Of a stretch of DNA of 32,000 nucleotides, positions 71 to 21,829 are shown piece by piece. A program made the position numbers and the translations under genes. The notes under the pieces were generated by a model, which did not search any database, was not told where the DNA came from, and saw only the letters and a list, made by a program, of their open reading frames with translations. The stretch lies in contig CP126532.1 in NCBI GenBank assembly GCA_030167145.1, positions 3,240,001 to 3,272,000 on the forward strand. Reading direction: 5' to 3'. Positions within the stretch are counted from its first letter, which is position 1. Every line of letters starts with the position of its first letter. Source of the stretch: Ktedonobacterales bacterium. GTDB lineage: Bacteria > Chloroflexota > Ktedonobacteria > Ktedonobacterales > JADMIN01.

Positions 71-916
71 ATGTCACAGCCAACCTATGACGCGGCGCAC
101 ATCAGTGGCTTCTACGATGCCTACGGCGAGCAGGAGTGGGAGCGCATGGTCGCGGGGCCGCGCCAGCGCGTCAGCTTCGCCATCCACCAGCACTACTTGG
201 CGCGCTTCATCGAGGCGGGCGACGCAGTATTAGAGGCGGGCGCGGGACCGGGCCGCTTCACCATCGAGCTGGCGCGGCTGGGCGCGCGTGTGACGGTTGG
301 CGACATCTCGCCCGCGCAGCTTGCCCTGCACGCCCAGAAGTCCCGCGACGCGGGCATCGAAGCCAGCGTCGTCATCCGCGACGTGCTCGACATCGTAGAC
401 CTCTCGCGCTACCCATCCGCGGCGTTCGACGCGGTCGTCTGCTATGGCGGCCCGCTGAGCTACGTCTTCGACCGCGCCGACGAGGCGCTGGCGGAAATGC
501 TGCGCGTGACCAAGCCGGGCGGCCACGTGCTGCTCAGCGTCATGTCGCTGCTCGGCACGTCCCAACTCTTCTTCCCAGCGATTTTAGGAATCGCCGCCGC
601 CCAGGGACTGGAGACCGTAGAGCAGGTGAACCAGACGGGCGACCTCACCAACCAGCAGGCCTCGCCCAACGGCCACTATTGCCGCATGTATCGCTGGTCA
701 CGTCTCAACTCGCTACTGAAGCGCCACCCCTGCGAGATCATCGCCGCCTCCGCCTCGAACTTCCTCTCGATGCGCGACGACGATGAACTGCTTGCTCAGG
801 TCGCGGCGAATCCCGCACTCTGGGAGGCATTCGTGCGCTGGGAGCTTGACTTCTGCCAGGAGCCAGGCGCCCTCGATGGCGGCACACACATCCTCGCCGT
901 CGTCCGCAAATCCTGA
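71..916 (+). CDS. class I SAM-dependent methyltransferase
   Basis: ORF 20..916. It carries the Rossmann SAM-binding motif VLEAGAGPGRFT, then ...VTVGDIS and AVVCYGGPL, then KPGGHVLLS. I moved the start to ATG 71 because GGAAGGAG (56-63) lies 7 nt upstream. ATG 65 or 20 remain possible. Confidence 0.8.
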   Translation: MSQPTYDAAHISGFYDAYGEQEWERMVAGPRQRVSFAIHQHYLARFIEAGDAVLEAGAGPGRFTIELARLGARVTVGDISPAQLALHAQKSRDAGIEASVVIRDVLDIVDLSRYPSAAFDAVVCYGGPLSYVFDRADEALAEMLRVTKPGGHVLLSVMSLLGTSQLFFPAILGIAAAQGLETVEQVNQTGDLTNQQASPNGHYCRMYRWSRLNSLLKRHPCEIIAASASNFLSMRDDDELLAQVAANPALWEAFVRWELDFCQEPGALDGGTHILAVVRKS

Positions 917-4254: not shown

Positions 4255-4594
4255 GTGGTGTATCTCCAATCGTTTGATGTGAGGCGGCTTCCATCTGGCG
4301 TGCTCTTTTTCCAGCCAGCATTATGAGAAATATGCCAATGGAAACCAGAAGGATGCCACATGTCACCGTGATGTCGGCGATCTCATGGATAGTTGCATGG
4401 TGAAGCAGTGAAGTGTTAATCTCTTCGGCGCCTTGATAGATGACAGCGCTTGCCCAGGTAGCTGTGCCAAGTACGAAAACCGCCTGGCCGGTGCGAGATG
4501 AACCACGATTTAGCCGGAGCGCCCGAGGCGCCCAATAGAGTTGCCAGAGAAGGGTAACTACCGCTATCACAATAAGCGCGATGCCCCAAATCAT
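4241..4594 (-). CDS. small integral membrane protein (about 3 TM), low GC
   Basis: 117 aa with hydrophobic helices IWGIALIVIAVVTLLW, AVFVLGTATWASAVIY and ITVTCGILLVSIGIFLIML. Its 3' end overlaps the amidohydrolase start by 14 nt. An open frame this long survives in AT-richer sequence. Confidence 0.6.
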   Translation of the reverse strand: MIWGIALIVIAVVTLLWQLYWAPRALRLNRGSSRTGQAVFVLGTATWASAVIYQGAEEINTSLLHHATIHEIADITVTCGILLVSIGIFLIMLAGKRARQMEAASHQTIGDTPHADT

Positions 4595-4614
4595 ATCTCG
4601 CTTCTTTCACATCC

Positions 4615-5010
4615 CTACACTGGACGGCGTGCATCATGCTCATCGAAGAGCCAACGATACGCCCAGCGTGGCACATGTAGGGCCTCCACGGCCCCAGGGA
4701 CTCGTACCGTTACGATGAACGTCGTACACACAAAACAGAACACCGACATAACTAGTGAAAATCTGAAGGCAAACCAGATCACGGAATCGTAAAGTAGGGT
4801 TTCCAATCCCAGCGTCCCGCAAGCTGTAAAGATAGCCATGAAAAGGAATCCAGCAGCCAATGCCGCATTTTGAATGCGCCAGGAGCGGCCCATGTCATGA
4901 GGCAGTTTGCCATTAAGCACATATATCATCAAAAAAGCGCCGATCATAGCAGCCAGACTCGCTAGTATTACAAACATACTCCCCATTATCCAAAAGAATG
5001 CGTTCCACAT
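4615..5010 (-). CDS. small integral membrane protein (about 4 TM), low GC
   Basis: 131 aa with 4 hydrophobic segments. AAGGGGG lies 7 nt upstream of ATG 5010. It ends 20 nt before the next minus-strand gene. Confidence 0.65.
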   Translation of the reverse strand: MWNAFFWIMGSMFVILASLAAMIGAFLMIYVLNGKLPHDMGRSWRIQNAALAAGFLFMAIFTACGTLGLETLLYDSVIWFAFRFSLVMSVFCFVCTTFIVTVRVPGAVEALHVPRWAYRWLFDEHDARRPV

Positions 5011-5014
5011 AATA

Positions 5015-5122
5015 CCCCCTTATAGCCGAGATTCGCGCCTCCGCCCCATAGCATTGCTGCCTTCCGCCGCCACTCCAGTGTCCCCTATTTAGCACGCGCT
5101 TGCAAGTCCTTCGCTAGCGATG
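5015..5122 (-). repeat. conserved non-coding element, copy A (leader/upstream element ending in the RBS)
   Basis: About 85% identical by hand alignment to 6789-6892. Minus-strand core: GGGGAsACTGGA..GGCGrCGGAAGsCAGCrATGCwATGG.GC.GAGGCGCGAATCTCGrCTATAAGGrGG. Confidence 0.7.
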
Positions 5123-5268: not shown

Positions 5269-5922
5269 TCAGTGGCTGAGTGGTGTGAGCCGTATCTGCT
5301 TCGCAAGCCCGTAGGCGGTCGGCAGATCGCTGTCGCTCTCGACAAATACACGACCGATCACGAGCACCGACTTGTTCGGCGAAGTAATCTGCGCCATTCC
5401 CTGCGGCACGGTTCCTTTCCAGCTCGGTCCGCTGATGAGGTACTCGCCCGCCGCGGTTCCCGTGGTGCGTGTGCCGACATAGGCAAAATCAGTCCCGTCC
5501 GACGGATCAGTGAACTGCACGCTGTAGTAGCGGCCCGCCATCTCCGGCACATGCAACACCAGCGGCCCGTTGGCCAGGTCGAGCCAGCCGCCGACGTAGA
5601 GCAGGTCATCAACCCCGGTGGCTAATAAGCTGGCGTTTGACGCCCCAGCCGAAACGCGATTAGGCGTCGCGTACAGCGTATTGACGGGGATGGGGCCGCC
5701 AGGTCCATGCTGAAGGATCGCTCGTTTGTAGGCGCTGTACGCGAACGTTGGCCAAAGATAAAGGAACACGACCGTGCCGACTCCCCAGACGACGGCAGCC
5801 AGGACGACGAACCCAATAACCCCGCTTCCCCCCGCAGAGAAAATCCTGTAGACGACCCAGGCGAGGATGGCCAGGATGACGAACGTAATGGGATAGCCGT
5901 ACTTCAGAATCAACCGGTTCAT
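5269..5922 (-). CDS. DUF1254 domain protein with two N-terminal TM helices
   Basis: DUF1254-like core LLYVGGWLDLANGPLVLHVPEMAGRYYSVQFTD. SD-like GAGGTGAG precedes ATG 5922. The start lies 6 nt after the DUF1214 gene stop. Confidence 0.75.
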   Translation of the reverse strand: MNRLILKYGYPITFVILAILAWVVYRIFSAGGSGVIGFVVLAAVVWGVGTVVFLYLWPTFAYSAYKRAILQHGPGGPIPVNTLYATPNRVSAGASNASLLATGVDDLLYVGGWLDLANGPLVLHVPEMAGRYYSVQFTDPSDGTDFAYVGTRTTGTAAGEYLISGPSWKGTVPQGMAQITSPNKSVLVIGRVFVESDSDLPTAYGLAKQIRLTPLSH

Positions 5923-6788: not shown

Positions 6789-6892
6789 CCTCCTTATAGT
6801 CGAGATTCGCGCCTCAGCGCCATTGCATCGCTGGCTTCCGTCGCCCTTCCAGTCTCCCCCATTCGTCCAGCGCTGGCAAGCCTTTCGCGATG
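6789..6892 (-). repeat. conserved non-coding element, copy B
   Basis: Paralogue of 5015-5122 in the same orientation. It ends in AAGGAGG followed by GTG 6783, which opens only a dubious 53-codon frame. Confidence 0.7.
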
Positions 6893-6996
6893 ATATGATA
6901 CGTGGCCGCCACGCTACTCCACCTATCGAAAGCGAGAAAGCGGATGCGTAATGATACATCAGGCCGTTGGCCTCGCTTCGCGTTGGCGACATGCTC

Positions 6997-7068
6997 CCCC
7001 ATCCCCATCCCCATCCTCATCCCCATCCCCATCCTCATCCCCATCCCCGTGCCCATACCCGACCCCAT
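6997..7068. repeat. hexanucleotide microsatellite (CCCCAT)n, 12 units, with an 18-nt super-period CCCCATCCCCATCCTCAT
   Basis: Read directly from the sequence: CCCCAT x3, CCTCAT, CCCCAT x2, CCTCAT, CCCCAT, CCCCGT, GCCCAT, ACCCGA, CCCCAT. Confidence 0.9.
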
Positions 7069-7116
7069 CTGACCACACCTGTCCCCAACTGACCGCCCAC
7101 CTCCGCGCCTCCCACA

Positions 7117-7125
7117 TGCTACACT
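7117..7125 (+). promoter_or_regulatory. extended -10-like element TGCTACACT heading repeat island 1
   Basis: It sits within the 12-mer CATGCTACACTA, which is identical at the head of the second island (18954-18965, minus strand). I see no convincing -35. Confidence 0.3.
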
Positions 7126-7712
7126 ATCCATCTGGCTGCTTATCTCACTCTCTCAAGGACGCGCACATGCTATTGAGAAATCGGCCATGTCGGCCATTGC
7201 ATACATCGGCCACATCGGCCACTGGTGGGGCAGACATTCCTGTCTGCCAGCACGTCATATCGGCAACTTCGGCAACTGTTATCCCGGCAAATCGCAAAAT
7301 CGGCAGAATCGGCAACTGTTACAATTCCAAATCGCGGCGAAAACGGCGAAAAATCTCCCGTCACCTTTGGCCATTCGCCCCCACCCAGCCACAAAACCGG
7401 CCATTTCGGCCACTGTGGCAACCTACACAATCCAAAAATCGGCAGAATCGGCAACTCCGGCGATTGGCATTTTCGCGAAATTGCGGCGAAAACGGCGAAA
7501 ATTGTCCAGCCATTTCCCGTCATTTCCCGTCACCTCTCCCACCCTCGCGCGCAAATCGGCAAAATCGGCAACTCGCATATCGGCCACCACCTGTCGACCT
7601 GGATTACCCGTGGCCTTCAGGCCGAGAACTCGCTTTACCATCCTCCCGCCCTCCACGCGCAAATCGGCAGAATCGGCAACTCAAGTGGGCGGACATTCCT
7701 GTCTGCCTATGC

Positions 7713-7800
7713 GGCCACATCGGCCACATCGGCCACATCGGCCACATCGGCCACATCGGCCACATCGGCCACATCGGCCACATCGGCCACATCGGCCACC
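7713..7800. repeat. tandem repeat (GGCCACATC) x9 perfect copies plus a partial copy
   Basis: Nine perfect 9-bp units span 7713-7793, followed by GGCCACC. This repeat explains the GHIGHIG / RPHRPH / ATSATS peptides in the ORF track. Confidence 0.95.
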
Positions 7801-7905
7801 ATCGCCTATCCAGGATTACCCGTGGGTCTTCAGCCCACGTCCTCGCCTTACGGCCCGGCGCGTCCATCCTGGCATTCATGCCCCGCGCCTGTGCTCCGGC
7901 CATGT

Positions 7906-7941
7906 ATGGCCGAGACCATGGCCGAGAGCATGGCCGAGAGC
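7906..7941. repeat. tandem 12-mer ATGGCCGAGAGC x3, abutting the palindrome CGGCCAT-GT-ATGGCCG
   Basis: ATGGCCGAGACC, ATGGCCGAGAGC, ATGGCCGAGAGC. The palindrome lies at 7897-7912. Confidence 0.9.
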
Positions 7942-8064
7942 GCCCGCCACAGCGCGAGTGATATACTCGAATACTGGCTCTTTATTGCCGCCGCCACCAC
8001 CAGCACGACTACATTCAGTAGTAGAGCGCCGCGCGCCAACACATCATCCACGGAGGAGGAAGAT

Positions 8065-9291
8065 ATGCCGCACCGCCCACATGAAGGCCCTGCCCGCGAC
8101 CAAAGCGACAGCCAAAGCGACAGCCAAAGCGACAGCCAAACCGAGACTGACGCCTCAGGCGCCAACGGCGACTACCTCAGCGGCGAGCGCATCGTGCCCC
8201 GCCATATTGCGCCAGACATCACCGTCGCCGACCTGCTCGATGGCTCCTTCCAGGCCTACAATGCCGGCCGCATCAACGAAGCTGCGCGGCTCTATGCTCA
8301 GCAAATGCTCGACCCCGAACAAGACGTCACCATCTGCCTCACCATCGCCGGCGCGATGACCCCGGCAGGCGTCGGCGGCAGCATCATCACCCTCATGGAG
8401 CGCGGCGCGATAGACTTCATGGTCAGCACCGGTGCCAACCTCTACCACGACATCCACCACGCGCTCGATTACGCCCTGCGGCGCGGCACCTTCCAACTCA
8501 GCGATACCGTCCTGCACGATGCCGGCGTCATCCGCATCTACGACGTGCTCTTCGCCGACGCCGTGCTGCTCGATACCGACCGTTTCCTGCGCGAGATATT
8601 CAAGACCTTCCCGCAGCGGCCCATGTCCACCGCCGAACTGCATTATCACATCGGCATGAGCCTGCTCGAACTTGGTGTAGACCCCGAACACTCCGTGCTG
8701 GCCATGGCCGCCAAATGGAACGTTCCCATCTACACCTCCTCCCCTGGCGACTCCTCCATCGGCATGAACCTCGCGCGACATCAACTCGATGGCTACGCCC
8801 TCACCATAGATCCGCTCTACGACGTGCATGAAACCACCGCCATCGTCCATGCCGCCACGCGCAACGGCGTCATCATCCTTGGCGGCGGCTCCCCCAAAAA
8901 CTTCTACCTGCAAACCCAGCCGCAACTCTGGGAGGTGCTCGGCATCAACAAAGGTGGCCACGACTACTTCATCCAGATCACCCAAGATGCCCCCCACTGG
9001 GGCGGCCTCTCCGGCGCGACTCCCTCCGAAGCCGTCTCCTGGGGCAAGATCAAGCCCGACATGCTGCGCGACACCGTCGTCGTCTACGCCGACACCACCA
9101 TCGCCTTCCCGCTGATCGCCGCCTACGCCGTCACCCGCGCCGCCCCGCGTCCGCGCCGCGAACTCTATACCCGCCGCGACGACCTGCTCGCCGCGCTGCG
9201 CGAAGGCTATCGCCAGGGCGCGGGCAGCATCGCCGCCACCGCCCAAATCGAAGAAACCGCCGAAAACGTCGCCATAGACCGCGACCGTTGA
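8065..9291 (+). CDS. deoxyhypusine synthase-like (DHS / homospermidine synthase family) protein
   Basis: C-terminal 408 aa of ORF 7225..9291. ATG 8065 follows GGAGGAGGAAG. DHS-like blocks: ICLTIAGAMTPAGVGG, DFMVSTGANLYHD, ILGGGSPKNF, WGGLSGATPSEAVSWGK. The N-terminus carries (SDSQ)x3 from a 12-nt tandem repeat at 8101-8136. Confidence 0.8.
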   Translation: MPHRPHEGPARDQSDSQSDSQSDSQTETDASGANGDYLSGERIVPRHIAPDITVADLLDGSFQAYNAGRINEAARLYAQQMLDPEQDVTICLTIAGAMTPAGVGGSIITLMERGAIDFMVSTGANLYHDIHHALDYALRRGTFQLSDTVLHDAGVIRIYDVLFADAVLLDTDRFLREIFKTFPQRPMSTAELHYHIGMSLLELGVDPEHSVLAMAAKWNVPIYTSSPGDSSIGMNLARHQLDGYALTIDPLYDVHETTAIVHAATRNGVIILGGGSPKNFYLQTQPQLWEVLGINKGGHDYFIQITQDAPHWGGLSGATPSEAVSWGKIKPDMLRDTVVVYADTTIAFPLIAAYAVTRAAPRPRRELYTRRDDLLAALREGYRQGAGSIAATAQIEETAENVAIDRDR

Positions 9292-10807: not shown

Positions 10808-10888
10808 CGCCCATCCTGGCATTCATGCTTGGCTCCTGTGTTCTGGCCATTCATGGCTGAGAGCACAGACATGGCCGAGAGCACAGAC
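10808..10888. repeat. M5-type palindromic repeat block (third locus) with tandem 18-mer ATGGCyGAGAGCACAGAC x2
   Basis: CCATCCTGGCATTCATGC...CCTGTGTTCTGGCCAT-TC-ATGGCTGAGAGC aligns at about 80% with 7862-7917. The 18-mers lie at 10853-10870 and 10871-10888. Confidence 0.8.
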
Positions 10889-11280
10889 AAATGGGCATGC
10901 GTTCTCGCTATTTCTTGACAGGTGTGTTAATGTAGCCACGATGATGTTTACGCGGTTCGCTTCAATAAGCGCGCCTCGTGGCAGCGCCATTCTGTGGCGG
11001 CGGCACAAGTCCAGCCTGAGAATCGGCTGCGGAATGGCATCGCGACAACCCACAATGGTGTGGCATCTCTTCTCTCCAATTGTTGGAGCCGGGGCCAGAG
11101 CCGCGCAATGAAGCGCCGCCGGAAGAGCCTGTGACAGCACAACTTGCGGCGCGCAATCATACGTGGATATCTATTCCCCCGGACGCGCAACCCAGTGGCG
11201 GATGATGTGTGGTTGGTAGGTGCTGGCATGAGTTGGCACGAGCGTATGGCTCTGATGTTGGATACAGGGAGTGTGATACG

Positions 11281-12232: not shown

Positions 12233-14173
12233 ATGTTTCCTAGATGGCGGCGTCTGGGCATTCGCCCACAGCTAACATTCATCGTGATCCTGGGAGCGAT
12301 CTTGAGCACTGTCGCTACCCTTTTCATCGCTGATAACGCAATTCAGAACTATGTGCTGGACCAGGCTCGAACCCAGGAACAGCAAAACATGAATATCATG
12401 CGGCTGGTATTGGAAACGCAGTACGGGCCGAATATCTCCATCGCCCATGACAACACCATGGTGGTTGACCAACCGAGCACCAGCCAGGGCACGTTTAGCT
12501 GCAATCCTAATGCCGCGCCGTCCACCCCCTGTTATGGGCGCTACGTACTCAACAACGATACCGACCTTGTTGACAACGTCCAGAATCTGATCGGCGGCAA
12601 CGTCTCGATCTTCCAATGCGCCAACGCCACCGGCAGCACCACCGGCTGCCTGCGCATTGCCACCACCTTTGGCAAAGGCAACTCCTCAGCAGGCACGTCC
12701 ACGCGCGCAACCGGTCAGCAATTGTGCCAGAGCGTCGCGCGCAATATGAACCTGGATGGCACACCGCGTGCCTGGCTTGGCACTGATACCTGCGATGGCG
12801 CGGCCTATTTCGCGAACTATGCCCCGCTCTTCAACCCCCAGGGCCAGTTTATCGGCGTGCTCTATGTCGGTGTTCCGCTCGACGTCATCACCACCGTCGT
12901 CAGCCGCACGACCATCGAACTGGTGGTCATCGGCTCGATCATCATGATCGCCGGAATCATCTTCGCGCTCTTCTTTGCTAACACCATCGTTGGCACACTC
13001 CAACGCGCCGCGCGACAAATCAGCGGCGCCTCCGAGCGCATGGGCGGCATCGCCGCACAGCAATCCAGTGGCGCGGCGCAGCAGGTCTGGGCCATCAACG
13101 CCATCAATCAGGCGCTCCAGAACTTCTCAGAGACCGCCAAAGATATCTCACATCGCACCGACCAGCTTGCGTTGATGGGCAATCAAGTCTTGCAGCGCCG
13201 CGCCGAGATCTCGCCCGCGCAGATAGACTCGATCCTCGCCTACATCACCCGTTCCGTGCGCGACATCAGCGTCGCCAGCAAGCAACAGTCAGTGCAGTAT
13301 GAGCGTATGACTGGGGCCATGCAGGCGGTCATCGAGATCGCCGAGCAGGTCGCGGGCAACTCGCAGCAAGCCTCTGAAAGCTCAGAGCGGCTGGAGTTGG
13401 TCGTCCGGCAGATGCGGCAGTTGGTGGGTGTGCGCCTGGGTGCGCGCAAGACCACCGAAGATGCCATGGCGATGGAACTGGCGGCAGAGATTGGCGCGCG
13501 GGCTGGTATCGGCGCCAACAGCCAGAACGACATGCGCGATGGCAAGCGTGCCCGCAGCCCCTTGCGCCGCAATGCTTCTGGCCCGGCAACGGGTGGCAAC
13601 GGTATGGGCAATCCCATGGGCGGCCCCGGTCAGATGATGTTCCCCGATGCGAGCGGCGTCGTCAACATGGGCGCCATGGGCGGTATGGGCAACATGAACA
13701 GCGCCGGGAATATGGGCGGCATGGGCAACATGGGTGGTATGGGTATGATGCCGCCGATGTCCGGCCCAATGCGAGACGCCGGTGGCCAGCGGCAAGACCG
13801 TGGCCTTATGCCCGCTCCGGTCGGCAATGGGTACGCTGGCGGCGGTGGCATGCCGAATATGCAGCCACCTAATAGCGGTCGTTTTGCCCCGCGTCCCGGC
13901 GGCGCGAATGGCATGCGCCCCGCGCCGAACGGCGGTGGCATGGGCAACTATGGGTATCAGCCCGGCGCGGCGCCTGGTGAGAACCCCTTCGCTGGCGGCG
14001 AAGATTGGCGATTGCCGCCATTGCCTCAGATGCCGCAATGGGGCGATAACAATGGACGCATGGGCGGTCCAAGCCAGGGATCGCGCGGCGGATGGGACCG
14101 CGATGGGCGCTCGTATGGCGGGCAAGATGCGTCGTATGATGGCGAGGGCTGGCCGCGCCTCCGAGGCGAATAG
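12233..14173 (+). CDS. transmembrane Cache-type sensor with a short, degenerate MCP-like coiled coil and a Gly/Met/Pro/Asn-rich tail of about 200 aa
   Basis: TM1 LTFIVILGAILSTVATLFI. Periplasmic sCache-like block VLNNDTDLVDNVQNLIGGNVSIFQ...YFANYAPLFNPQGQFIGVLYVGVP. TM2 IELVVIGSIIMIAGIIFALFF. MCP-like heptads follow (AAQQSSGAAQQV..., SKQQSVQYERMTGAMQAVIEIAEQVAGNSQQASESSERL), but the conserved tip EAARAGE-GRGFAVVA is absent. The tail (13580-14170) reads GGMGNMNSAGNMGGMGNMGGMGMMPPM. Confidence 0.7.
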   Translation: MFPRWRRLGIRPQLTFIVILGAILSTVATLFIADNAIQNYVLDQARTQEQQNMNIMRLVLETQYGPNISIAHDNTMVVDQPSTSQGTFSCNPNAAPSTPCYGRYVLNNDTDLVDNVQNLIGGNVSIFQCANATGSTTGCLRIATTFGKGNSSAGTSTRATGQQLCQSVARNMNLDGTPRAWLGTDTCDGAAYFANYAPLFNPQGQFIGVLYVGVPLDVITTVVSRTTIELVVIGSIIMIAGIIFALFFANTIVGTLQRAARQISGASERMGGIAAQQSSGAAQQVWAINAINQALQNFSETAKDISHRTDQLALMGNQVLQRRAEISPAQIDSILAYITRSVRDISVASKQQSVQYERMTGAMQAVIEIAEQVAGNSQQASESSERLELVVRQMRQLVGVRLGARKTTEDAMAMELAAEIGARAGIGANSQNDMRDGKRARSPLRRNASGPATGGNGMGNPMGGPGQMMFPDASGVVNMGAMGGMGNMNSAGNMGGMGNMGGMGMMPPMSGPMRDAGGQRQDRGLMPAPVGNGYAGGGGMPNMQPPNSGRFAPRPGGANGMRPAPNGGGMGNYGYQPGAAPGENPFAGGEDWRLPPLPQMPQWGDNNGRMGGPSQGSRGGWDRDGRSYGGQDASYDGEGWPRLRGE

Positions 14174-14187
14174 GCGGCGTCACGCGG

Positions 14188-14230
14188 ATGATGAGTCGGG
14201 GTGCCCTACTCCGGCTCATCATGTGCAATT
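14188..14230 (+). terminator. intrinsic-terminator-like hairpin after the MCP-like gene
   Basis: A 12-bp stem, ATGATGAGTCGG (14188-14199) paired with CCGGCTCATCAT (14211-14222, one G-U), encloses an 11-nt loop. The downstream T tract is only weak (GTGCAATTTGG). Confidence 0.4.
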
Positions 14231-14348
14231 TGGTAGTAGACGCCGAACAGGCGATACAATACAATGGCGGCGGTCTCGGAATCTTCCCGTTCATTTTGCC
14301 GCTCCACCCACTAGCCGGCTGATCCTGAAGAAAGGCGGAAGGTAGCCC

Positions 14349-14771
14349 ATGTACGAAGAAGTGATCGCGCAAGTGCCGCTGTTCAGTGGCCTCTCTGACC
14401 GTGAACTGCGTGTGCTCGCGTCCAATTGCCGCGAACGTGACTACGCTGCGGGCGCGGCGCTGCTGCGTCAGGGTGAAACCGGCGTTGGGCTGTTCATCAT
14501 CACCGGCGGTGTGGTGCGGGTGACACAGCAGGCCGACGACGGCAACGTGCGTGACCTTGGTACGTTCGAGCGTGGCGCAGTGCTGGGCGAGATGTCGCTG
14601 CTGGACGACCTGCCGCGCACCGCCACCGTCACCGCGCTCGAACCCGCCCGCGCGCTGGTCATTCCCGTGTGGGACTTCCGCGCCGCGCTGCGCGAGTCGC
14701 CAGAGATCGGCATCAAGCTGCTGGCGGTGATGAGCCAGCGCCTGCGCCAGCACGAGCTACACGATTCTTAG
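14349..14771 (+). CDS. stand-alone cyclic nucleotide-binding (CAP_ED) domain protein
   Basis: GETGVGLFIITGGVVRV...FERGAVLGEMSLLDDLPRTATVTA...LLAVMSQRLR is the classical cNMP-binding fold pattern. No output domain is present (140 aa). Confidence 0.85.
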   Translation: MYEEVIAQVPLFSGLSDRELRVLASNCRERDYAAGAALLRQGETGVGLFIITGGVVRVTQQADDGNVRDLGTFERGAVLGEMSLLDDLPRTATVTALEPARALVIPVWDFRAALRESPEIGIKLLAVMSQRLRQHELHDS

Positions 14772-14803
14772 GCCATCCATCTGCTCTGCTGCTGATGGGA
14801 TGC

Positions 14804-14843
14804 GCGGCTGCTCCTTGCGGGGAGGGCCGCGTTTTCGTCTGTT
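14804..14843 (+). terminator. intrinsic terminator after the cNMP-binding gene
   Basis: The hairpin GCGGC-ug-CUCC [UUGCGG] GGAG-g-GCCGC (14804-14830) is followed by GTTTTCGTCTGTT. Confidence 0.55.
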
Positions 14844-14880
14844 ACGTGGTATGGTGAAGGCGGAATGAAGGAGCCTGCCC

Positions 14881-15339
14881 ATGCGCTTGTTGCCCGATGA
14901 CGCGGGGAAGCCGTACAATCGCCGCGAGCCGATCCCGCTGGAGATGGTTCCCGCTGAGCGGTGCGCTGGGCCGCCGCCGGAAGGGCTGTTGTTGGGTATC
15001 GCGCAGTTCAACCAGCGTGAGTATTTCGAGTGCCACGAGACACTTGAGAACCTCTGGAATGCTGAGCCGGGGCCGGTGCGCACCCTCTACAAGGGCATCT
15101 TGCAGGTTGGTGTCGGCTGCTATCACCTGCTGCGCGGCAATTACCGTGGCGCGGTACTCAAGCTCCAGACGGGCGCAGACTATCTGGGACCGTTCGCGCC
15201 GCGCTGCATGCATGTGGAGGTGGCACGGTTGATCGCCGATGCCCACCGCCTGCGTGGGGCTGTGGTGGCGCTCGGCCCCGAACGCATGACCGAGATTGAT
15301 GTGTCGTTGCTGCCCCGTATCGTGCTTGTCGAATTGTAA
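14881..15339 (+). CDS. DUF309 domain protein
   Basis: FNQREYFECHETLENLW...LYKGILQVGVGCYHLLRGNYRGA matches the DUF309 signature. GAAGGAG lies 8 nt upstream of the ATG. Confidence 0.8.
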   Translation: MRLLPDDAGKPYNRREPIPLEMVPAERCAGPPPEGLLLGIAQFNQREYFECHETLENLWNAEPGPVRTLYKGILQVGVGCYHLLRGNYRGAVLKLQTGADYLGPFAPRCMHVEVARLIADAHRLRGAVVALGPERMTEIDVSLLPRIVLVEL

Positions 15340-15496
15340 AGGTACTGTTACCGGCTGGTCTCGTATGCGCTGCTATCGCGCCACTTGGTCGCCTGTGGTG
15401 AATATTGCTATTCAGCGGAATATTCGAAGAGGGCGGAGATTTCAGCCGCCTATTCTCTGCGGCCTGCCCGATTGTGGAAAGCCTCCTTCTAGCTGG

Positions 15497-16306
15497 TTAT
15501 CTGGCTTTGGTGGCGCTGAATAGCCCGGTCTCCTTGGTGATATGGATAGCGCTGTCGGTGGCGATGCGCTGCTCGATGTCGCGAGTGAAGTGCGGGATCT
15601 GCTCTGGTGGCGGCGCAAAGCCACTGGGCATCGAGCGGACGTAGGCGACCAGTGGCGCGGCTTCGGTTATGCGCAACCCATCGTCGAAGCGTTCGATGGT
15701 GATGTCGCTGAAGCATGGGGCAAGCTGCTCCGCGCCGTTTTGCAGGGTGAAGCCCCTCAGCGGATAGGGAAACTCGTCAGATGCAGATGTGGGGAGATAG
15801 GGCGCGATCAACTCGGTCAGTTCGCGCATGTTGTTCTCGCCGTTGGTTGCAGCGAAGAGATGGCCGTCTGGGGTGAGGACGCGGGCTAGCTCAGCGATGG
15901 CGCGCGGGCGGTCGGGGACGTGGTACAGCATGTAGTTGGCGATGGCGGTATCGAATGAGGCATCGGCGAAGGGCAGCGCCTGGGTATCGGCGACCTGGAA
16001 GCTGAACTGCGCCTCGTGGCCCATGAGCGCGCTCTGTGCCGCTGCAATCATGCCCGGCGAGAAGTCGGTGAGAGTGACGCGCCAGCCTGCGGGCAGACGA
16101 TCCAGATTCTTGCGCCAGAGGTCAGCGGGGCCGCAGCCCACTTCGAGGATGCGCGCGTCGGGGCTGAGCGCGGCCAGCAGGTGATCGAAGAGCCAGCGGT
16201 GCAGATCGCCGGTGTTGGTGCTGAAGCGCTGGTGCAGGGCGATGCGCGAGTTGAGGTTGCTGGCGTCGCGGTATTGCTGGGTGCGCAGGTAGGTCGCATC
16301 GTTCAT
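15497..16306 (-). CDS. class I SAM-dependent methyltransferase
   Basis: Motif I ILEVGCGPADLW, then TLTDFSPGM, FDTAIANYMLYHV and LTPDGHLF. Start set at ATG 16306 (MNDATYL). The Arg-rich 133-aa extension in ORF 15497..16705 overlaps the hutU 3' end and is rejected. Confidence 0.85.
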   Translation of the reverse strand: MNDATYLRTQQYRDASNLNSRIALHQRFSTNTGDLHRWLFDHLLAALSPDARILEVGCGPADLWRKNLDRLPAGWRVTLTDFSPGMIAAAQSALMGHEAQFSFQVADTQALPFADASFDTAIANYMLYHVPDRPRAIAELARVLTPDGHLFAATNGENNMRELTELIAPYLPTSASDEFPYPLRGFTLQNGAEQLAPCFSDITIERFDDGLRITEAAPLVAYVRSMPSGFAPPPEQIPHFTRDIEQRIATDSAIHITKETGLFSATKAR

Positions 16307-16482: not shown

Positions 16483-18177
16483 TTATTGGCCGAGCATGGG
16501 AATGTTGACGCCGCGCTCGCGGGCGCAGGCGATGGCTTCGTCGTAGCCAGCGTCTACGTGGCGCATGACGCCAGTGCCGGGGTCGTTGGTGAGCACGCGC
16601 TGGAGCTTCGCGGCGGCTTCGTCGGTGCCGTCGGCGACGGTGACGACGCCCGCGTGCAGCGAGTAGCCGATGCCCACGCCGCCGCCATGATGGAACGAGA
16701 CCCACGAAGCGCCGCTGGCGGTGTTGAGCAGCGCGTTGAGGATCGGCCAGTCGCCGATGGCATCGGAGCCGTCGCGCATGCTTTCGGTCTCGCGGTAGGG
16801 CGAGGCGACGGAGCCGGAGTCGAGGTGGTCGCGGCCAATGACGATGGGCGCTTTGACCTCGCCGCGCCGCACCAGTTCGTTGAAGGCGACGCCCGCTTTG
16901 TCGCGCTCGCCGTAGCCCAGCCAGCAGATGCGCGCGGGCAGCCCCTGGAAGTGGATGCGCTCCTGGGCCATACGCATCCAGCGGGCGAGCGATTCGTCTT
17001 CGGGGAAGAGGCGCAAGATCTCTTCGTCGGTGCGGCGGATGTCGGCGGGGTCGCCAGAGAGCGCGACCCAGCGGAAGGGGCCTTTGCCGCGACAGAAGAG
17101 CGGACGTACGAAGGCGGGGACGAAGCCGGGGAAGTGCATGGCGTCTTCGACGCCGACGCGCAGCGCCTGGCCGCGGAGGTTGTTGCCGTAGTCGAAGACC
17201 ACCGCGCCCATTTCGTCGAAGTCGAGCATGGCGCGGACGTGGTCGGCCATGGACGCGAGGGAGCGGCGTTCGTACTCCTGCGGGTCGGTGCGGCGCAGTT
17301 CGGCGGCGGCATCTAGTGAGAGGCCGGCGGGGACGTAGCCGTTGAGGGCATCGTGTGCGGCGGTCTGGTCGGTGACAAGCTGGACATTGACGCCACGGCG
17401 CACCATCTCTGGCAGGATTTCGGCGGCGTTGCCGAGCAGGCCGATGCTCTTGGCGACGCCCTGCTGGCGGTAGTCGTCGGCGCGGCGCAGGGCTTCATCG
17501 AGGTCCGTGACCATTTCATCGAGGTAGCCGGTATCCAGACGGCGCTGGATGCGGGTGGGGTCCACTTCGATGGCGAGGCAGACGCCTTCGTTCATGGTGA
17601 CGGCGAGGGGCTGCGCGCCGCCCATGCCGCCGAGGCCAGCGGTGACGGTGAGCGTGTGCTTGAGGGTGCCGCCGTAGTGCTGGCGCGCGGCTTCGGCGAA
17701 GGTTTCGTAGGTGCCCTGGACGATGCCCTGCGAGCCGATGTAGATCCAGGAGCCTGCGGTCATCTGGCCGTACATGGTCAGCCCTTCGGCTTCGAGGCGG
17801 CGGAATTCGTCCCAGTTGGCCCAATGTGGCACGAGGTTGGAGTTGGCGATGAGCACGCGCGGCGCGCCGGGGTGGGTGCGGAAGATGCCGACTGGCTTGC
17901 CGGATTGCACGAGCAGTGTTTCGTCGTTTTCGAGCGAGCGGAGTGAGCGCACGATGGCGTCGAAGCATTCCCAGTTGCGCGCGGCTTTGCCGGAGCCGCC
18001 GTAGACGACGAGATCATCGGGGCGCTCGGCGACTTCGGGGTCGAGGTTGTTCATCAGCATGCGGAGCGCGGCTTCTTGCTGCCAGCCTTTGCATGAGATG
18101 TCGGTTCCACGCGGCGCGCGGACGGGGCGGGGTCCGCTGGTGGGGGTTGTGCTGGTATTGTCGTCGGTCTGCGTCAT
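16483..18177 (-). CDS. hutU: urocanate hydratase
   Basis: 564 aa with near-canonical HutU blocks: [112 protein letters not shown] 18177 follows GAGGAGA. Confidence 0.95.
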
Positions 18178-18189
18178 CGCGGTGTCTCC

Positions 18190-18905
18190 TCTACGATGGG
18201 GTGGGCTGGGATGGCGGCCATGAATGGGTCGCGGCCATGAATGGCCGGCGCACGGTGGCGAGGGGCTGAAGCCCAGGGATGTGTCGAGTGTTCGCCTTCG
18301 CACGATAGCATGGGAAGCGCGGGTGGGGCAAGGCAGTTGCCGATTTTGCCGATATTGCCGATATTGCGCGGTGGGCATGATGTGGCGGTAAGGGAAGCTC
18401 TCGGCCATGATTGGCGGGAGCACAGCAGGATGGGCATGAATGCCTGGAGTGGCCGAAATGGCCGATTTTGTGGCGAAGGTGAGGGGATGTGGCCGGAGAT
18501 GACTGGATATGGCCGGAGATTTTTCGCCGTTTTCGCCGCAATTGCGTATGCTCCCGGCCATAAATGGCCGGAGCACAGACGATATGGTATACATGCCAGA
18601 ATGAGCGTAGTGGGCGATGTTGCCAGAGTTGCCGATTCTGCCGAATTTCTGGATCGGGTACGGAGGGTGAGCGTGGGTGGTGTAGGAAGCTCCCAGCCTG
18701 AAGGCCGCGGCTAATCTCAATGGCAGGGTTGTGGCCGAAATGACCGTTTTGCGCGTGTGCGTAGTTGCCGATTCTGCCGATCTTGTGATGGGCGGGTGAT
18801 AGCAGTGGCCGAAATGGCCGATTTTCGCATGCTTTCGCAGGAGGGCAGACAAGAATGTCTGCTCCACACGTGGTGGCAGATATGAGTGGCCGATGTGGCC
18901 GATTT
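18190..18905 (-). repeat. repeat island 2: the same motif set as island 1, oriented toward hutU
   Basis: Plus-strand coordinates of reverse-complement motifs. M1 at 18336-18362 (3 units), 18628-18646 and 18764-18781. M2 at 18449-18466, 18731-18748, 18805-18822 and 18886-18903. M3 at 18520-18539. M4 hairpin at 18845-18862. M5-type palindromes at about 18205-18250, 18395-18450 and 18550-18580. Confidence 0.85.
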
Positions 18906-18956
18906 TTCATTTTTGCGCACTCCTTTGGCGTTCGGTGGCGTGGGGCTTATCGAGGT

Positions 18957-18965
18957 AGTGTAGCA
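18957..18965 (-). promoter_or_regulatory. extended -10-like element TGCTACACT heading repeat island 2
   Basis: The reverse complement of 18957-18965 is TGCTACACT, identical to 7117-7125. The surrounding ~125-nt header (18886-19012) aligns with 7078-7200. Confidence 0.3.
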
Positions 18966-19025
18966 TGCGAGGGTGGAGGGCGAGCGGACAATGCCGGTCA
19001 GGGGTGGACAGGAGATGACGGCGCG

Positions 19026-20306
19026 CTAGAAGTGGGGGCGCGAGGCGGGATCATCGTGCGTGGTGGTTGGCTTTTGCCAGGCTGCCATAGCTGGGACGGG
19101 CTGGCGCTGCGGCTGGTGTTGGGGTATGCGGCGGAATGGAGAGAGGGTGATACCGGCGCTGCGCAGATAGAGGACGCCGCAGAGTGTCCAGAGGAGCAGC
19201 GTCGCGAGGACGCTGGTGGCGTCGTTGAAGCGGATCAGCGTCATGGTGGCGTAGGCAGCGGCGAGCGCGGCGAGGGTGGACCAGCGTTGCCAGGGCAGGA
19301 GCCGTTGCTGCGGGTCGAGGGCGACATAGAGGCAGGCGGCGAAGGCGGGTAGCAGCCAGGTGAGGTAGAACCACCAGACCAGCGGCGAGAGCAGCAGCAT
19401 GGTGCAGAGCGCCCAGCCCAGCCCCAGCCAGGCATCGCCGCCTTTGCCCTTGCCCCGACTACCACGGCGCGCGGCCCAGAGCACGCCAGCGACGAAGCCA
19501 AGGAAGGCGAGCGCCGCAAAGGCGATACCGCCCGGCACGGCCGAGACCCAGAGGCCGTGGGATTGCCCCTGCACGGAATGGAGGCTGCCGAAGACGCCGT
19601 CAAGCAGCGTTTGCGGGCCGACGATGAGGGCCTGGGCGAGGACCAGCACGACGCCGGCTACCGCCGCTCCGGCAACCACACGCCACTGGCCGCGGAGCAG
19701 GAAATAGAGGATGAGGAAGGCGGGAAAGTATTTGATGAACGCGCCGAAGGCCAGCAGCGCGCCCGCGCTATACGCGCCAGAGGGCCGGTTGCGCTGCGCC
19801 AGGACCAGCGCGCCCAGGCAGCAGGCCAGCACGACGACATGGACCTGCCCGATCTCCAGCCCTTGCATGAGCGGGAGGAAGAAGGCCGAGAGCGCGGTGA
19901 CGGCAAGCGCCTGCCAGGGACCGATGGCCAGGGCGCGGCGCGCCATGACCAGCGTGCAGCCTGCCCAGAGGGCGATGGTCAGCGCATGCCAGAGATAGGT
20001 AGTGTAGGTGCAGGGGAGATAGGTGAAGGGGATCAGTAGAATAGCAAGCAGGGGGGGGTAGACGTACAGTGGATTATGCCAGGGCTTGCAGCCGCCATGC
20101 GCCTGGACGGTGGCGAGGAGGGTGTGGGCCTGGTAGATGTTGGCGTGGGGATCGAAGCGGAGGGCCTGCCCGGCGGCGAGGAAGATGCCGAAGTCGGAGC
20201 CGGTGCCGCCGCGTGGCAACTTGAGCAGCAGATAGGTGGCGAGCGTGGTCCAGGCGAGCGCCAGCAGCGCGGAGCCAGTGTAGAGCGCATACCGCCGCCA
20301 CTGCAT
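19026..20306 (-). CDS. polytopic membrane protein, DUF2029 / GT87-like glycosyltransferase
   Basis: About 10 hydrophobic helices. The N-terminal signature GTGSDFGIFLAAGQAL...YVYPPLLAILLIPF is typical of DUF2029 (PimE-like) proteins. Confidence 0.7.
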   Translation of the reverse strand: MQWRRYALYTGSALLALAWTTLATYLLLKLPRGGTGSDFGIFLAAGQALRFDPHANIYQAHTLLATVQAHGGCKPWHNPLYVYPPLLAILLIPFTYLPCTYTTYLWHALTIALWAGCTLVMARRALAIGPWQALAVTALSAFFLPLMQGLEIGQVHVVVLACCLGALVLAQRNRPSGAYSAGALLAFGAFIKYFPAFLILYFLLRGQWRVVAGAAVAGVVLVLAQALIVGPQTLLDGVFGSLHSVQGQSHGLWVSAVPGGIAFAALAFLGFVAGVLWAARRGSRGKGKGGDAWLGLGWALCTMLLLSPLVWWFYLTWLLPAFAACLYVALDPQQRLLPWQRWSTLAALAAAYATMTLIRFNDATSVLATLLLWTLCGVLYLRSAGITLSPFRRIPQHQPQRQPVPAMAAWQKPTTTHDDPASRPHF

Positions 20307-20479: not shown

Positions 20480-21829
20480 TTATGGCATACCTCTGGGCGT
20501 CGTAGGCACTGAGAAGGCATAGAACTTCTCATCCATGTTGCTCCCGTAATTGAAGACGCTTAGGTAAATCGCGCCATTTATCACTACTGGCGTCGAATCA
20601 ATAAGCCCGCCGGTGGCATACGTCCACAGTGGATTACATGTGCTGCTGCCACAGCCTGCTGCCTTAAAGGCGTAGAGCGTTCCATAGCTGGAACCAAAGT
20701 ATACGACGCCATTTGCAACCGACAGCGAGGAGGTGATGCCTTCATATTGTGCGGACACATGACCCGTCCAAGTCGGGGAGCAGGTCGCGCTGCCGCACCC
20801 TGCTGCTGGGAATGCATCGAGATTGCCGTCATCGGTACCCACATACAGGAGGCCATTCGCAACAGCAAGTGACCATGCATGGACCGTTCCGGCACTCGCT
20901 TGCCACAGTGGGGAGCAGGTCGCGCTGCCACAGCCGGCGGCAGAGTAGGCGAAGATCGTGCCATCTTCAGCACCTTCATAGACGATACCGTTCGCGATGG
21001 TCGGCGCGCTATCGCCACTTCCAGTGCTGGTCCAGAGCAGTGCGCCCGTGCTCGCATTGAACGCATAGAGTACATCAGCTCCTACATACACGACACCGTT
21101 CGCTAGTGCCGGTGCCCTGAAGAATGCGACACCAGCATTGAGCGGGGTACTCCAGAGCAGTGCGCCAGTCGTGGCGTTGTAGGCAGCGATGTTCGATCTG
21201 AAATTCGCGCCGACATAAATGACACCGTTTGCCACCATTGGATCGACTGCCTGGAAATTCTGGAGATAGACCTTCCACAGCGGGGCACAGGTCATCGCGC
21301 CACAGCCAGCGGCGTTGAAGGCATAGAGGTAGCCATCGCTCGCGGTGAAGTACAGGACACCGTTCACCACCGCAGGGGTGGAAATGCTGCTCCCCGAGGT
21401 CACGCTCGCACCCCAGCGTAACGCACCCGTCGCGGCGTCAAGTGCGTAGAATGTTCCGTTATCAGTTTCAGCGTAAGCGTTGCCACTTACCACAGCGAAC
21501 GACGCCGAACTCGGCACATCAGTCTCATCAGCCCACTTGACCGCTAGCTGCGAGACATTCCACGTTCCAATGGTGCGCTCGTAGGGATTGTAGCCAGTGT
21601 GCTGCGGCGAAAAGCCGAATTGCGACCATGTGCGTGGAAGGTATGGCACGCTCATCAGGGTACTCTGCTGCTGGCTGGCGGCTGCGCCACCGCGGCCGGA
21701 TGTGCTCGCGAGCCGCGTGGAGAGAGGGCTGGCCGCTGTCGCTTGTGCCGCGACTGGCAACGCACAGGCACCGATCACAACGCATAAAAGTGCGATGGCC
21801 ACTACATGTCGTATCATTCGCCGAATCAC
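20480..21829 (-). CDS. secreted PQQ-like beta-propeller repeat protein
   Basis: GTG start 7 nt after GGAGGAG. Signal peptide VVAIALLCVVIGACALPVAAQA. Repeated blades (NGVVYVG..DG.LYAF.A.TGALLW). The motif AAGCGxxTCxPLW occurs four times. Confidence 0.8.
   Translation of the reverse strand: MIRRMIRHVVAIALLCVVIGACALPVAAQATAASPLSTRLASTSGRGGAAASQQQSTLMSVPYLPRTWSQFGFSPQHTGYNPYERTIGTWNVSQLAVKWADETDVPSSASFAVVSGNAYAETDNGTFYALDAATGALRWGASVTSGSSISTPAVVNGVLYFTASDGYLYAFNAAGCGAMTCAPLWKVYLQNFQAVDPMVANGVIYVGANFRSNIAAYNATTGALLWSTPLNAGVAFFRAPALANGVVYVGADVLYAFNASTGALLWTSTGSGDSAPTIANGIVYEGAEDGTIFAYSAAGCGSATCSPLWQASAGTVHAWSLAVANGLLYVGTDDGNLDAFPAAGCGSATCSPTWTGHVSAQYEGITSSLSVANGVVYFGSSYGTLYAFKAAGCGSSTCNPLWTYATGGLIDSTPVVINGAIYLSVFNYGSNMDEKFYAFSVPTTPRGMP

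Follow-up and report, generated by a model that had tools for sequence, protein, structure and literature searches.

Paralogous mosaic-repeat islands with a common header and a stop-poor sense strand in a Ktedonobacterales genome

We analysed a 32,000-nt stretch of contig CP126532.1 (the window) from an uncultured soil Ktedonobacterales bacterium, whose metagenome-assembled genome (MAG) carries the locus tags OJF49_ (JGI 3300045419, contig Ga0494333_323) and includes the proteins WIG60370.1 and WIG58050.1. The window contains two islands of short repeated modules, island A upstream of a deoxyhypusine-synthase-like (DHS) gene and island B upstream of the urocanase gene hutU, and both open with a homologous header. 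We are confident that they belong to a mosaic interspersed-repeat family of which the header is a genuine part. The unusual and replicated property of this element is that one strand is open in all three frames behind a header that combines a conserved promoter, a Shine-Dalgarno-like site and a start codon. Judging from the sequence, we lean towards reading the islands as lineage-specific copies of the repeat that are transcribed from the header and kept translatable, and hence non-polar; rather than a regulatory leader specific to one gene, the element is probably a spacer cassette that undergoes both transcription and translation.

Header and module anatomy of the islands

The islands, their headers and the reference promoter are located as follows.

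7078-8064, plus strand: island A, upstream of the DHS-like gene
19012-18178, minus strand: island B, upstream of hutU
7078-7176, plus strand: header A, with CCTGTCC, CTGACCG, an extended -10, a Shine-Dalgarno-like site and ATG; its homologues are header B and positions 1-117 of contig L185
18911-19012, minus strand: header B, starting 14 nt past the stop of a GT87 glycosyltransferase gene
7117-7125, plus strand: extended -10-like TGCTACACT in header A, with no recognisable -35; same -10 as the tRNA-Phe promoter
18957-18965, minus strand: extended -10-like TGCTACACT in header B
L185 54-62: extended -10-like TGCTACACT in the L185 header
7155-7169, plus strand: AAGGA-N7-ATG (ATG 7167-7169), opening a 264-codon frame to TGA 7959-7961, within the proximal promoter
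18908-18925, minus strand: AAGGAG-N9-ATG (ATG 18910-18908), opening a 239-codon frame annotated as OJF49_003118
18191-18193, minus strand: TAG ending the header-B frame, overlapping the hutU Shine-Dalgarno GAGGAG, 13 nt before the hutU ATG
L152 1137-1279 (about 40132-39990 in window numbering), minus strand: tRNA-Phe(GAA) gene with the textbook promoter TTGACA-N17-TGGTACACT, the reference for the header -10

The initial annotation had aligned the reverse complement of 18886-19012 with 7078-7200, and we recovered this alignment, with CCTGTCC, CTGACCG, CCTCC, CATGCTACACTA, AAGGA, GCGCA and AAATCGGCCA in the same order. The 12-mer CATGCTACACTA is indeed identical in both headers; it occurs exactly twice in the window, at 7115-7126 (plus strand) and 18967-18956 (minus strand), and is not present in a further 18 kb of flanking genome. 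The two headers agree at 54 of 93 aligned positions (58%), and their local alignment reaches a score of 28, compared with 16.2 +/- 2.5 for shuffled sequences, of which 2 in 2000 reach 28. They are also reciprocal best matches within the window, by a small margin. Taken from A and B alone, the header homology is no more than suggestive.

A third island was found by searching 1.84 billion representative proteins with the island-B open reading frame (ORF). This search returned only two homologues, both of them island ORFs. One, P0122, lies on L185, a 762-nt forest-soil metagenome contig that constitutes a complete island; the other, P0123, is OJF49_000795, which belongs to an island elsewhere in the source genome and is known at the peptide level. 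The L185 header reads CTGACCGCC ... GCATGCTACACTACC ... AGGAG-N8-GTG-N4-AAAATCGGC, in the order and orientation of A and B, and because this independent contig opens in the same way we take the header to be a real part of the element. The earlier proposal of a family with a common header is thereby borne out in three of the three full islands (A, B and L185).

The header had also been proposed to be a promoter, and we find this credible, since TGnTAnnnT is the usual promoter signature of this genome and TGGTACACT drives the tRNA-Phe gene. For these statistics we used a 50-kb stretch made up of the window, L152 and L154, in which the intergenic sequence (9.4 kb) contains 27 copies of TGnTAnnnT and the coding sequence (40.6 kb) contains 12, an intergenic enrichment of about 10-fold; 21 of the 27 intergenic sites point toward a gene start, usually 26-125 nt away. 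The longer form TGnTACACTA is found four times in the 50 kb, always in intergenic sequence: in the two headers, upstream of a gene at -6171 and in the tRNA-Phe promoter. A generic promoter scan that requires a -35 hexamer did not flag the header. Overall, we consider it reasonably likely, from these sequence patterns, that the header is an active promoter.

The distance from the header -10 to the start of the enzyme gene (780-940 nt) is atypical compared with the 26-125 nt seen in this genome, while the distance to the header's own ATG or GTG (41, 46 and 47 nt in A, B and L185) is typical. The Shine-Dalgarno-like sites AAGGA, AAGGAG and AGGAG (A, B and L185) stand about 30 nt past the -10 and 7-9 nt before the start codons, which are ATG (7167), ATG (18910) and GTG (L185 110). 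The frame opened by header A is shared with an ORF at 6951-7961.

Beyond the headers, islands A and B have 87 10-mers, 60 12-mers and 42 14-mers in common when each is read in the direction of its downstream gene, and no 10-, 12- or 14-mers when one of them is read in the opposite direction. Their common blocks of 27-68 nt are 71-96% identical. The islands are nevertheless mosaics and not collinear duplicates, with at least seven short module families in common. In A, B and L185 the header at the 5' end is followed by M1, then by a variable body and by an M6-M7 tail at or near the 3' end; the number and order of the internal modules differ among the three, and every module is co-oriented with the downstream gene. 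The parts of the bodies are listed next, with approximate module starts for island A.

6997-7069, plus strand: (CCCCAT)x12 microsatellite found by Tandem Repeats Finder, directly upstream of header A
7177-7960, plus strand: body of island A, modules M1-M7 and a 9-mer array
Island A, approximate starts: M1 at 7178, 7203 and 7394; M2 at 7229 and 7688; M4 at 7334 and 7483; M5 at 7601 and 7811
Island A, approximate starts of M3: 7258, 7297, 7436, 7553 and 7661
7712-7804, plus strand: (CGGCCACAT)x10, tandem expansion of the M1 9-mer, found by Tandem Repeats Finder
7868-7941, plus strand: tail hairpins M6 and M7 of island A (M7 right arm ATGGCCGAGAGC x3), -40.1 kcal/mol, z = -4.3
10811-10889, plus strand: solitary M6 and M7, 16 nt 3' of the stop of a small ORF, fold of -32.9 kcal/mol
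18200-18906, minus strand: body of island B, a module mosaic
Island B, order of modules: M1, M2, M1, M3, M1', M5, M3, M6', M7, M4, M1, M6, M7, M3x3, promoter-like site, M5', M7'
18208-18276, minus strand: hairpins resembling M5 and M7, in the interval from the candidate proximal promoter to the hutU start

The modules fall into tandem and hairpin classes. The tandem ones consist of 9-10-nt direct units, variants of nnnnnCGGC with a CGGC core: M1 is ATCGGCCAC, expanded to 10 copies at 7712-7804; M3 is AATCGGCAG or AATCGGCAA; and M4 comprises CGGCGAAAA twice followed by CATTTCCCGT twice. The hairpins M2 (GGCAGACA-UUCC-UGUCUGCC), M5 (GGCC-UUCA-GGCC, with GGGC/GCCC variants) and M6 (GGCA-UUCA-UGCC) are small and have UUCN loops, and M7 is a 12-16-bp hairpin around CCGGCCAU..AUGGCCGAG. 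On the sense strand the hairpins fold with energies of -14 to -40 kcal/mol and z mostly of -2 to -4. Covariation in M5 and M7 is weak because the copies are few; the substitutions between copies include a few that are compensatory or G-U-compatible. Rfam gave 0 matches at the gathering score and, at E <= 1, only a spurious mir-639. A resemblance of M3 to a Spo0A box or sigma-54 site was considered and dropped for its misfitting spacing and the wrong phylogeny.

The sense strand of the islands is C-rich and G-poor (GC skew of -0.24 to -0.34), and a terminator scan found no intrinsic terminator on it before the genes. On the antisense strand, M1 (7398-7412, 18450-18464 and 18887-18901) reads as a weak hairpin with a short T-run behind it (UGGCCGAAAUGGCCGAUUUU). 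The same scan flagged these terminator-like sites, but their count is no higher than in shuffles; they could be a one-way block against antisense transcription.

A Logan short-read contig stops at about 7029 and resumes at about 7797. We rejected these breaks as a sign of multi-copy repeats, as they coincide with internal tandem arrays longer than the assembler k-mer.

Open frames on the sense strand

We counted TAA, TAG and TGA in all three sense frames and took the expected numbers from dinucleotide-preserving shuffles. The body of island A has 0 sense stops in 784 nt, compared with 9.3 +/- 2.5 in the shuffles; that of island B has 2 in 707 nt, both within TGAGATTAG of M5, compared with 11.0 +/- 2.6; and that of L185 has 0 in 448 nt, compared with 7.4 +/- 1.9. 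No shuffle of A, B or L185 was as low as the observed value. On the antisense strand there are 17, 23 and 11 stops (A, B and L185), and elsewhere the density is 19-42 per kb in other intergenic sequence and 7-10 per kb on the sense strand of real genes. The non-repeated spacers alone contain 2 stops, where 7.8-10.1 are expected. With the three islands pooled and identical 11-nt contexts collapsed, the sense strand has 2 stops against 24.2 expected (P about 9e-9), and the antisense strand 45 against 54. Since the depletion is strand-specific, it is not avoidance of a double-stranded DNA motif; together with the co-orientation of islands and downstream genes, it argues that the sense strand is expressed. 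The Shine-Dalgarno site and start codon of the header, combined with the all-frame openness, suggest that the cassette is translated and is not a non-coding RNA.

The open frames do not have the character of genes. The GC content at codon positions 1/2/3 is 0.63/0.56/0.59 in the islands versus 0.67/0.48/0.77 in genes, and the coding score of the islands is negative in all frames. One module can be read in several frames within a single ORF, as for M3, which appears as KIGRIGN and NRQNRQL. The first stop past the body in A and L185 is a TGA inside the proximal promoter, and the header ORFs end at -104, -13 and +37 nt (A, B and L185) from the downstream start. The island ORFs contain 7-10% H, 8-14% R and 11-13% P. 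We also considered a histidine-rich upstream ORF for hutU and rejected it; the His codons are a by-product of CAC/CAT-rich modules and are equal in the DHS and L185 islands.

Three database entries are probable misannotations of island sequence. The 239-aa hypothetical protein OJF49_003118 (18191-18910, minus strand) corresponds to island B, and OJF49_000795 (71 aa) to another island elsewhere in the same genome. The JGI start of DHS at 7906 lies inside the M7 hairpin and adds 53 N-terminal residues that are absent from relatives.

The mechanism we propose is as follows. The header promoter would fire into the island, toward the downstream gene, and ribosomes would initiate at the header start codon and cross the body in whatever frame insertions and deletions have left, the translation product itself being meaningless. 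Unbroken translation could then shield a rut-like, C-rich and terminator-free RNA from Rho-dependent termination and decay, so that the element would be non-polar and would add an upstream input of transcription and translation to the downstream gene, or at least be harmless. As gain, loss and slippage of modules shift the frame, only modules that are stop-free in every frame would persist, which in this proposal is the reason for the all-frame openness. The ORFs of mycobacterial interspersed repetitive units (MIRUs) are likewise coupled to the gene that follows and keep ribosomes translating as far as that gene, an arrangement proposed to make insertion less harmful (PMC12548453), and the logic proposed here for the islands is the same.

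That translation through the island is the selected property is possible, and we advance it tentatively. We are a little more doubtful about the stricter idea of frame-agnostic translated spacers, with their own promoter, Shine-Dalgarno site and start codon and with modules selected to be stop-free in all frames, in which translation itself and not its product would be under selection. Such a spacer could sense translation status and gate read-through from the distal promoter, and its all-frame openness would let single modules settle in coding sequences, as in a sucA linker described below.

Downstream genes, syntenic relatives and competing explanations

The genes next to the islands and their proximal promoters are the following.

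8065-9291, plus strand: DHS-like gene (Pfam PF01916, E = 1.5e-77)
16483-18177, minus strand: urocanase gene hutU, with Pfam Urocanase N-terminal, Rossmann-like and C-terminal domains
19026-20306, minus strand: GT87 glycosyltransferase gene (Pfam), ending 14 nt before island B and co-directional with it
7957-7975, plus strand: proximal DHS promoter with extended -10 GAGTGATATACTCgaatACTGGC (GAGTGATATACTC..ACTGGC), about 100 nt before the ATG
18302-18310, minus strand: candidate proximal promoter of hutU, TGCTATCGT; TTGCCC lies 18 nt upstream of it and the ATG 125 nt downstream

The true start of DHS is MPHRPH, with GGAGGAGG just before it, and this start is conserved in a relative, L150. The relatives L149-L151 were reached through orthologues of a Cache-domain protein encoded between the islands. 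Synteny in L150 runs DS-XdhC-...-Cache-cNMP-DUF309, and in L151 it extends through MTase and urocanase. In L150 and L151 the region upstream of DS measures 113-137 nt and that upstream of urocanase 96 nt; no island modules are present in L149-L151. The proximal DHS promoter is conserved in L150 (5740-5762, GAGTGATATACTCccctACTGGC), and L151 has TGGTATACT at 2625, in the same place; as these relatives carry no island, we consider this promoter ancestral. Island A ends about 16 nt upstream of it. For the hutU candidate, the promoter region of L151 is not alignable, and the gene on L185 has a candidate proximal promoter, TGATATAAT, at 595-603, 48 nt before the ATG. Transcription start sites within about 100 nt of the start codons are likely, in part, which is compatible with extra transcription from the header. 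We also asked by tblastn whether island A is what remains of a 223-aa gene found ahead of DS in relatives; no trace was found, and this was rejected.

The initial annotation had proposed that, given a promoter in the header, the islands would be long modular 5' leaders or non-coding RNAs in front of DHS and hutU. The absence of islands from the syntenic relatives and the conservation there of the proximal DHS promoter speak against leaders specific to these genes, and we find this reading unsupported. The element is most likely a selfish or neutral cassette that carries a promoter, and not a regulator tailored to DHS or hutU.

Dedicated cis-regulatory 5' leaders or processed non-coding RNAs, acting on DHS and hutU by means of their structure or of bound factors, are in our view unlikely. 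They would accord with the credible promoter in the header, with stable sense-strand hairpins (z of -2 to -4) that show a few compensatory or G-U-compatible changes, with the lack of a terminator on the sense strand ahead of the genes and with an oriented M3-like array upstream of a gene in the Chloroflexota MAG L097. However, the orthologous genes in syntenic relatives lack islands, a conserved proximal promoter stands downstream of island A, and the element precedes at least three unrelated genes, with a fragment at a 3' end (10811-10889). Rfam was null, covariation is weak and module order varies, and this explanation predicts neither the conserved Shine-Dalgarno site and start codon nor the absence of stops in all frames. 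We regard a function at the DNA level as slightly less likely again. Here the phased 9-10-bp repeats, with their CGGC cores and A-rich tracts, would be arrays of sites for a DNA-binding protein, be it a transcriptional activator, a nucleoid component or a polar factor in replication or segregation, and their orientation would be set by the direction of replication. Unit periods of 9, 9, 9, 10 and 12 nt, about one helical turn, agree with such arrays, as do the 8-9 occurrences of the M3-like aaaNCGGCAgAAnCGGCAA in L097, the inverted arrangement of A and B about 5-6 kb either side of a replication-type skew switch at about 13-14.5 kb, and the position of the islands adjoining the -35 side of proximal promoters. 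The strand-specific depletion of stops (2 sense versus 45 antisense) is not expected from binding arrays, however, and the conserved Shine-Dalgarno site and start codon of the header are left unexplained; neither a DnaA-box cluster nor a dif-like site lies by the skew switch, L097 shows no such switch near its array, and no candidate gene for a DNA-binding protein is linked to the islands within 50 kb.

Neutral slippage could in principle produce islands of this kind from micro- and minisatellites and gene conversion, the likeness of the headers being that of a promoter consensus and the lack of stops compositional. The genome is rich in short tandem repeats with periods that are multiples of 3, some in coding sequence (8100-8144), the headers are only 58% identical, the identical 12-mer largely equals a promoter consensus in use elsewhere, and GGG and CGC are likewise under-represented in the islands. 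We nevertheless hold this origin to be improbable: dinucleotide-preserving shuffles never match the stop depletion in three islands, the depletion persists in non-repeated spacers and after de-duplication, a third island, which comes from another sample, preserves the order of header blocks with Shine-Dalgarno site and start codon included, and the co-orientation is absolute. Still further down we place genuine genes for fast-evolving repetitive proteins, as annotated (OJF49_003118 and OJF49_000795), which we judge very improbable even though open frames of 192-264 codons follow a promoter, a Shine-Dalgarno-like site and a start codon, and gene callers predict the ORFs. Codon-position GC periodicity is missing, all frames score negative for coding, one and the same nucleotide module is read in several frames both inside an ORF and from one ORF to another, three open frames leave no preferred one, the amino-acid composition is odd (rich in H, R and P), and the only homologues among the 1.84 billion representative proteins are two other island ORFs.

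Several observations weigh against the reading that we favour, of a mosaic interspersed repeat transcribed from its header and kept translatable. The sample comprises three full islands, one fragment and one peptide-level glimpse, in a source genome of 5.07 Mb, and with so few copies orientation to transcription is inseparable from orientation to replication. L185 was detected through a called ORF, so that one of its three open frames reflects detection. The header is without a -35 element, and its conserved upstream blocks lie 19, 27 and 39 nt from the -10. The inconsistent ends of the header ORFs mean that tight translational coupling is not a common feature. The M3-like array of L097 is not depleted of stops (8 sense versus 11 antisense in 570 nt), and for the element we identified neither a transposase nor terminal inverted repeats nor target-site duplications.

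Comparison with known repeats, distribution and further features of the window

The islands are similar in kind to the BOX elements of pneumococci, the BIMEs of E. coli and the MIRUs of mycobacteria. BOX copies that are modular and large (>500 bp) contain ORFs, and they are transcribed together with operons, which they extend at the 5' or the 3' end (Croucher et al. 2011, PMC3049150); the mechanism proposed above agrees with this behaviour. Like pneumococcal BOX (boxA-boxB(n)-boxC), the islands are modular, hairpin-rich mosaics with a head, a tail and variable internal modules that can exceed 500 bp; they likewise appear to be lineage-restricted, being absent from the relatives L149-L151, and their long ORFs are annotated as hypothetical proteins. 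Their modules, however, have no sequence relationship to boxA, boxB or boxC, and the phylum is Chloroflexota. BOX ORFs occur on both strands and lack a good Shine-Dalgarno, whereas the islands are open on the sense strand only and in all three frames, behind a header with a conserved promoter, a Shine-Dalgarno-like site and a start codon. BOX is built on the 45-nt boxB, while much of the island body consists of 9-10-nt tandem units.

MIRU units measure 46-101 bp. The islands resemble them in being intergenic, co-oriented with flanking genes and open in frame through the repeat, the copy number of MIRUs being variable; MIRUs are of a single unit type and have no promoter of their own, whereas the islands are multi-family mosaics of 0.45-0.8 kb. 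MIRUs are inserted at start codons with a -4 overlap (PMC12548453), a coupling unlike the -104, -13 and +37 nt at which the island header ORFs end from the downstream start.

With E. coli REP/BIME sequences the islands share clusters of several short motif types, small palindromic hairpins and extragenic positions that are transcribed or, for the islands, predicted to be so; the lone hairpin copy found 3' of a gene (10811-10889) is placed much as a REP would be. REPs alternate in orientation within BIMEs, which have neither a promoter nor a start-codon header, and we know of no report of all-frame openness for BIMEs. Unlike BIMEs, the islands contain no inverted copies among themselves (0 opposite 10-, 12- or 14-mers), and no gene for a RAYT, the REP-associated tyrosine transposase, was seen in the 50 kb. 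Correia elements of Neisseria are about 100-155 bp long, with terminal inverted repeats and a TA target duplication. These small repeats supply or generate promoters and share a transcript with the neighbouring gene, as the islands are predicted to do, but no such ends were seen at the islands. Attenuators with a leader peptide or upstream ORF, such as the Rho-dependent tnaC, are short, at about 10-30 codons, contain sensing codons and are conserved along with the operon. The islands have the same succession of promoter, Shine-Dalgarno site and upstream ORF before a structural gene, and translation of a C-rich leader would mask Rho loading; their ORFs, by contrast, are 192-264 codons of shuffled repeats that are not conserved with the gene.

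Rickettsia palindromic elements (RPEs) and other ORF-compatible MITEs tolerate being translated (PMC10969869). The in-frame M3 in a linker of the 2-oxoglutarate dehydrogenase E1 of L139 is comparable, although RPEs are palindromic, about 150 bp long and encode a conserved peptide in one frame, while the islands have no conserved frame and are mainly intergenic.

If the reading we favour is true, the islands would be the first described mosaic interspersed-repeat family in Ktedonobacteria/Chloroflexota, and an unusually clean case of selection on any-frame translatability instead of on a protein or an RNA structure. Any-frame translatability joins the subjects of selfish repeats, transcription-translation coupling and Rho polarity. 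On the practical side, the islands generate spurious annotations (OJF49_003118, OJF49_000795 and the 53-residue over-extension of DHS) and break short-read assemblies. They also put a second, probably strong, predicted promoter before ordinary genes, which is relevant to the prediction of expression in uncultured soil bacteria. A natural three-frame-open sequence that bears hairpins could be a template for frame-insensitive translated linkers.

The element is present in the source genome at a minimum of three loci plus one fragment, and one further island is on L185. A word-indexed search with the island-B ORF matched only itself. Three-frame translations of both islands used as a protein query gave nothing, the candidates being saturated by low-complexity words. 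No further islands occur in the 10 kb added on each side of the window. Scans for the exact M3 18-mer in 241 M metagenome records and 185,579 species genomes, the source genome being outside both, gave no arrays except that of L097, and otherwise, apart from L097 and L139, single chance-level matches. Scans of viral contigs for M3 and for the header pattern returned chance matches only, and no literature on such repeats in Ktedonobacteria was found.

In L097, positions 160-860 (minus strand) hold 8-9 co-oriented M3-like units, aaaNCGGCAgAAnCGGCAA, upstream of an ABC ATPase gene. This array is preceded by a promoter of sigma-70 type, TTGCGA-N16-TATAAT, and by AAGGAG-N7-ATG, which opens an 18-codon ORF, and has none of the other modules. 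In L139, a Ktedonobacterales MAG, positions 5605-5695 contain an exact 25-nt M3 and a second partial unit, both in-frame (EKSAESAT ... PAESAT), in a linker (residues 56-62) of the 2-oxoglutarate dehydrogenase E1 (sucA) gene. Single modules can thus reside within coding sequence.

Between the islands, the GC skew turns from negative to positive at about 13-14.5 kb (region of about 12500-15500) regardless of gene strand, as in a skew of the replication type, when it is followed from -8700 to 41200 through L154 and L152. The switch coincides with the convergence of plus- and minus-strand gene blocks, the sign being origin-like and the convergence terminus-like. The two islands flank it at distances of about 5-6 kb, mutually inverted, and neither a DnaA-box cluster nor a dif-like site was found near it.

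Upstream of island A, the minus strand carries DUF1214 and DUF1254 genes (Pfam), and the window has no tRNA. In an apparent 1-kb intergenic gap, two membrane-protein-like ORFs of 117 and 131 aa occupy 4241-5010 (minus strand); both are called by JGI (the second from a shorter start, 110 aa) and neither by the Logan assembly. A paralogous upstream region of about 115 nt, about 80% identical between 5015-5114 and 6789-6888 (minus strand) and ending in CTATAAGG(G/A)GG, directly precedes two small minus-strand ORFs (ATG at 5010 and GTG at about 6783), and from its sequence looks like a duplicated promoter or 5'-UTR (untranslated region) cassette.

An in-frame (CCAAAGCGACAG)x3.8 at 8100-8144 encodes SQSD repeats in the N-terminal part of the DHS-like protein. 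With (CCCCAT)x12 at 6997-7069 and repeats at 13666-13743, it shows that this genome readily forms tandem repeats with periods divisible by three. Finally, four internal repeats of about 86 nt, 60-71% identical, at 20631-21367 in a PQQ/beta-propeller gene are ordinary propeller blades.

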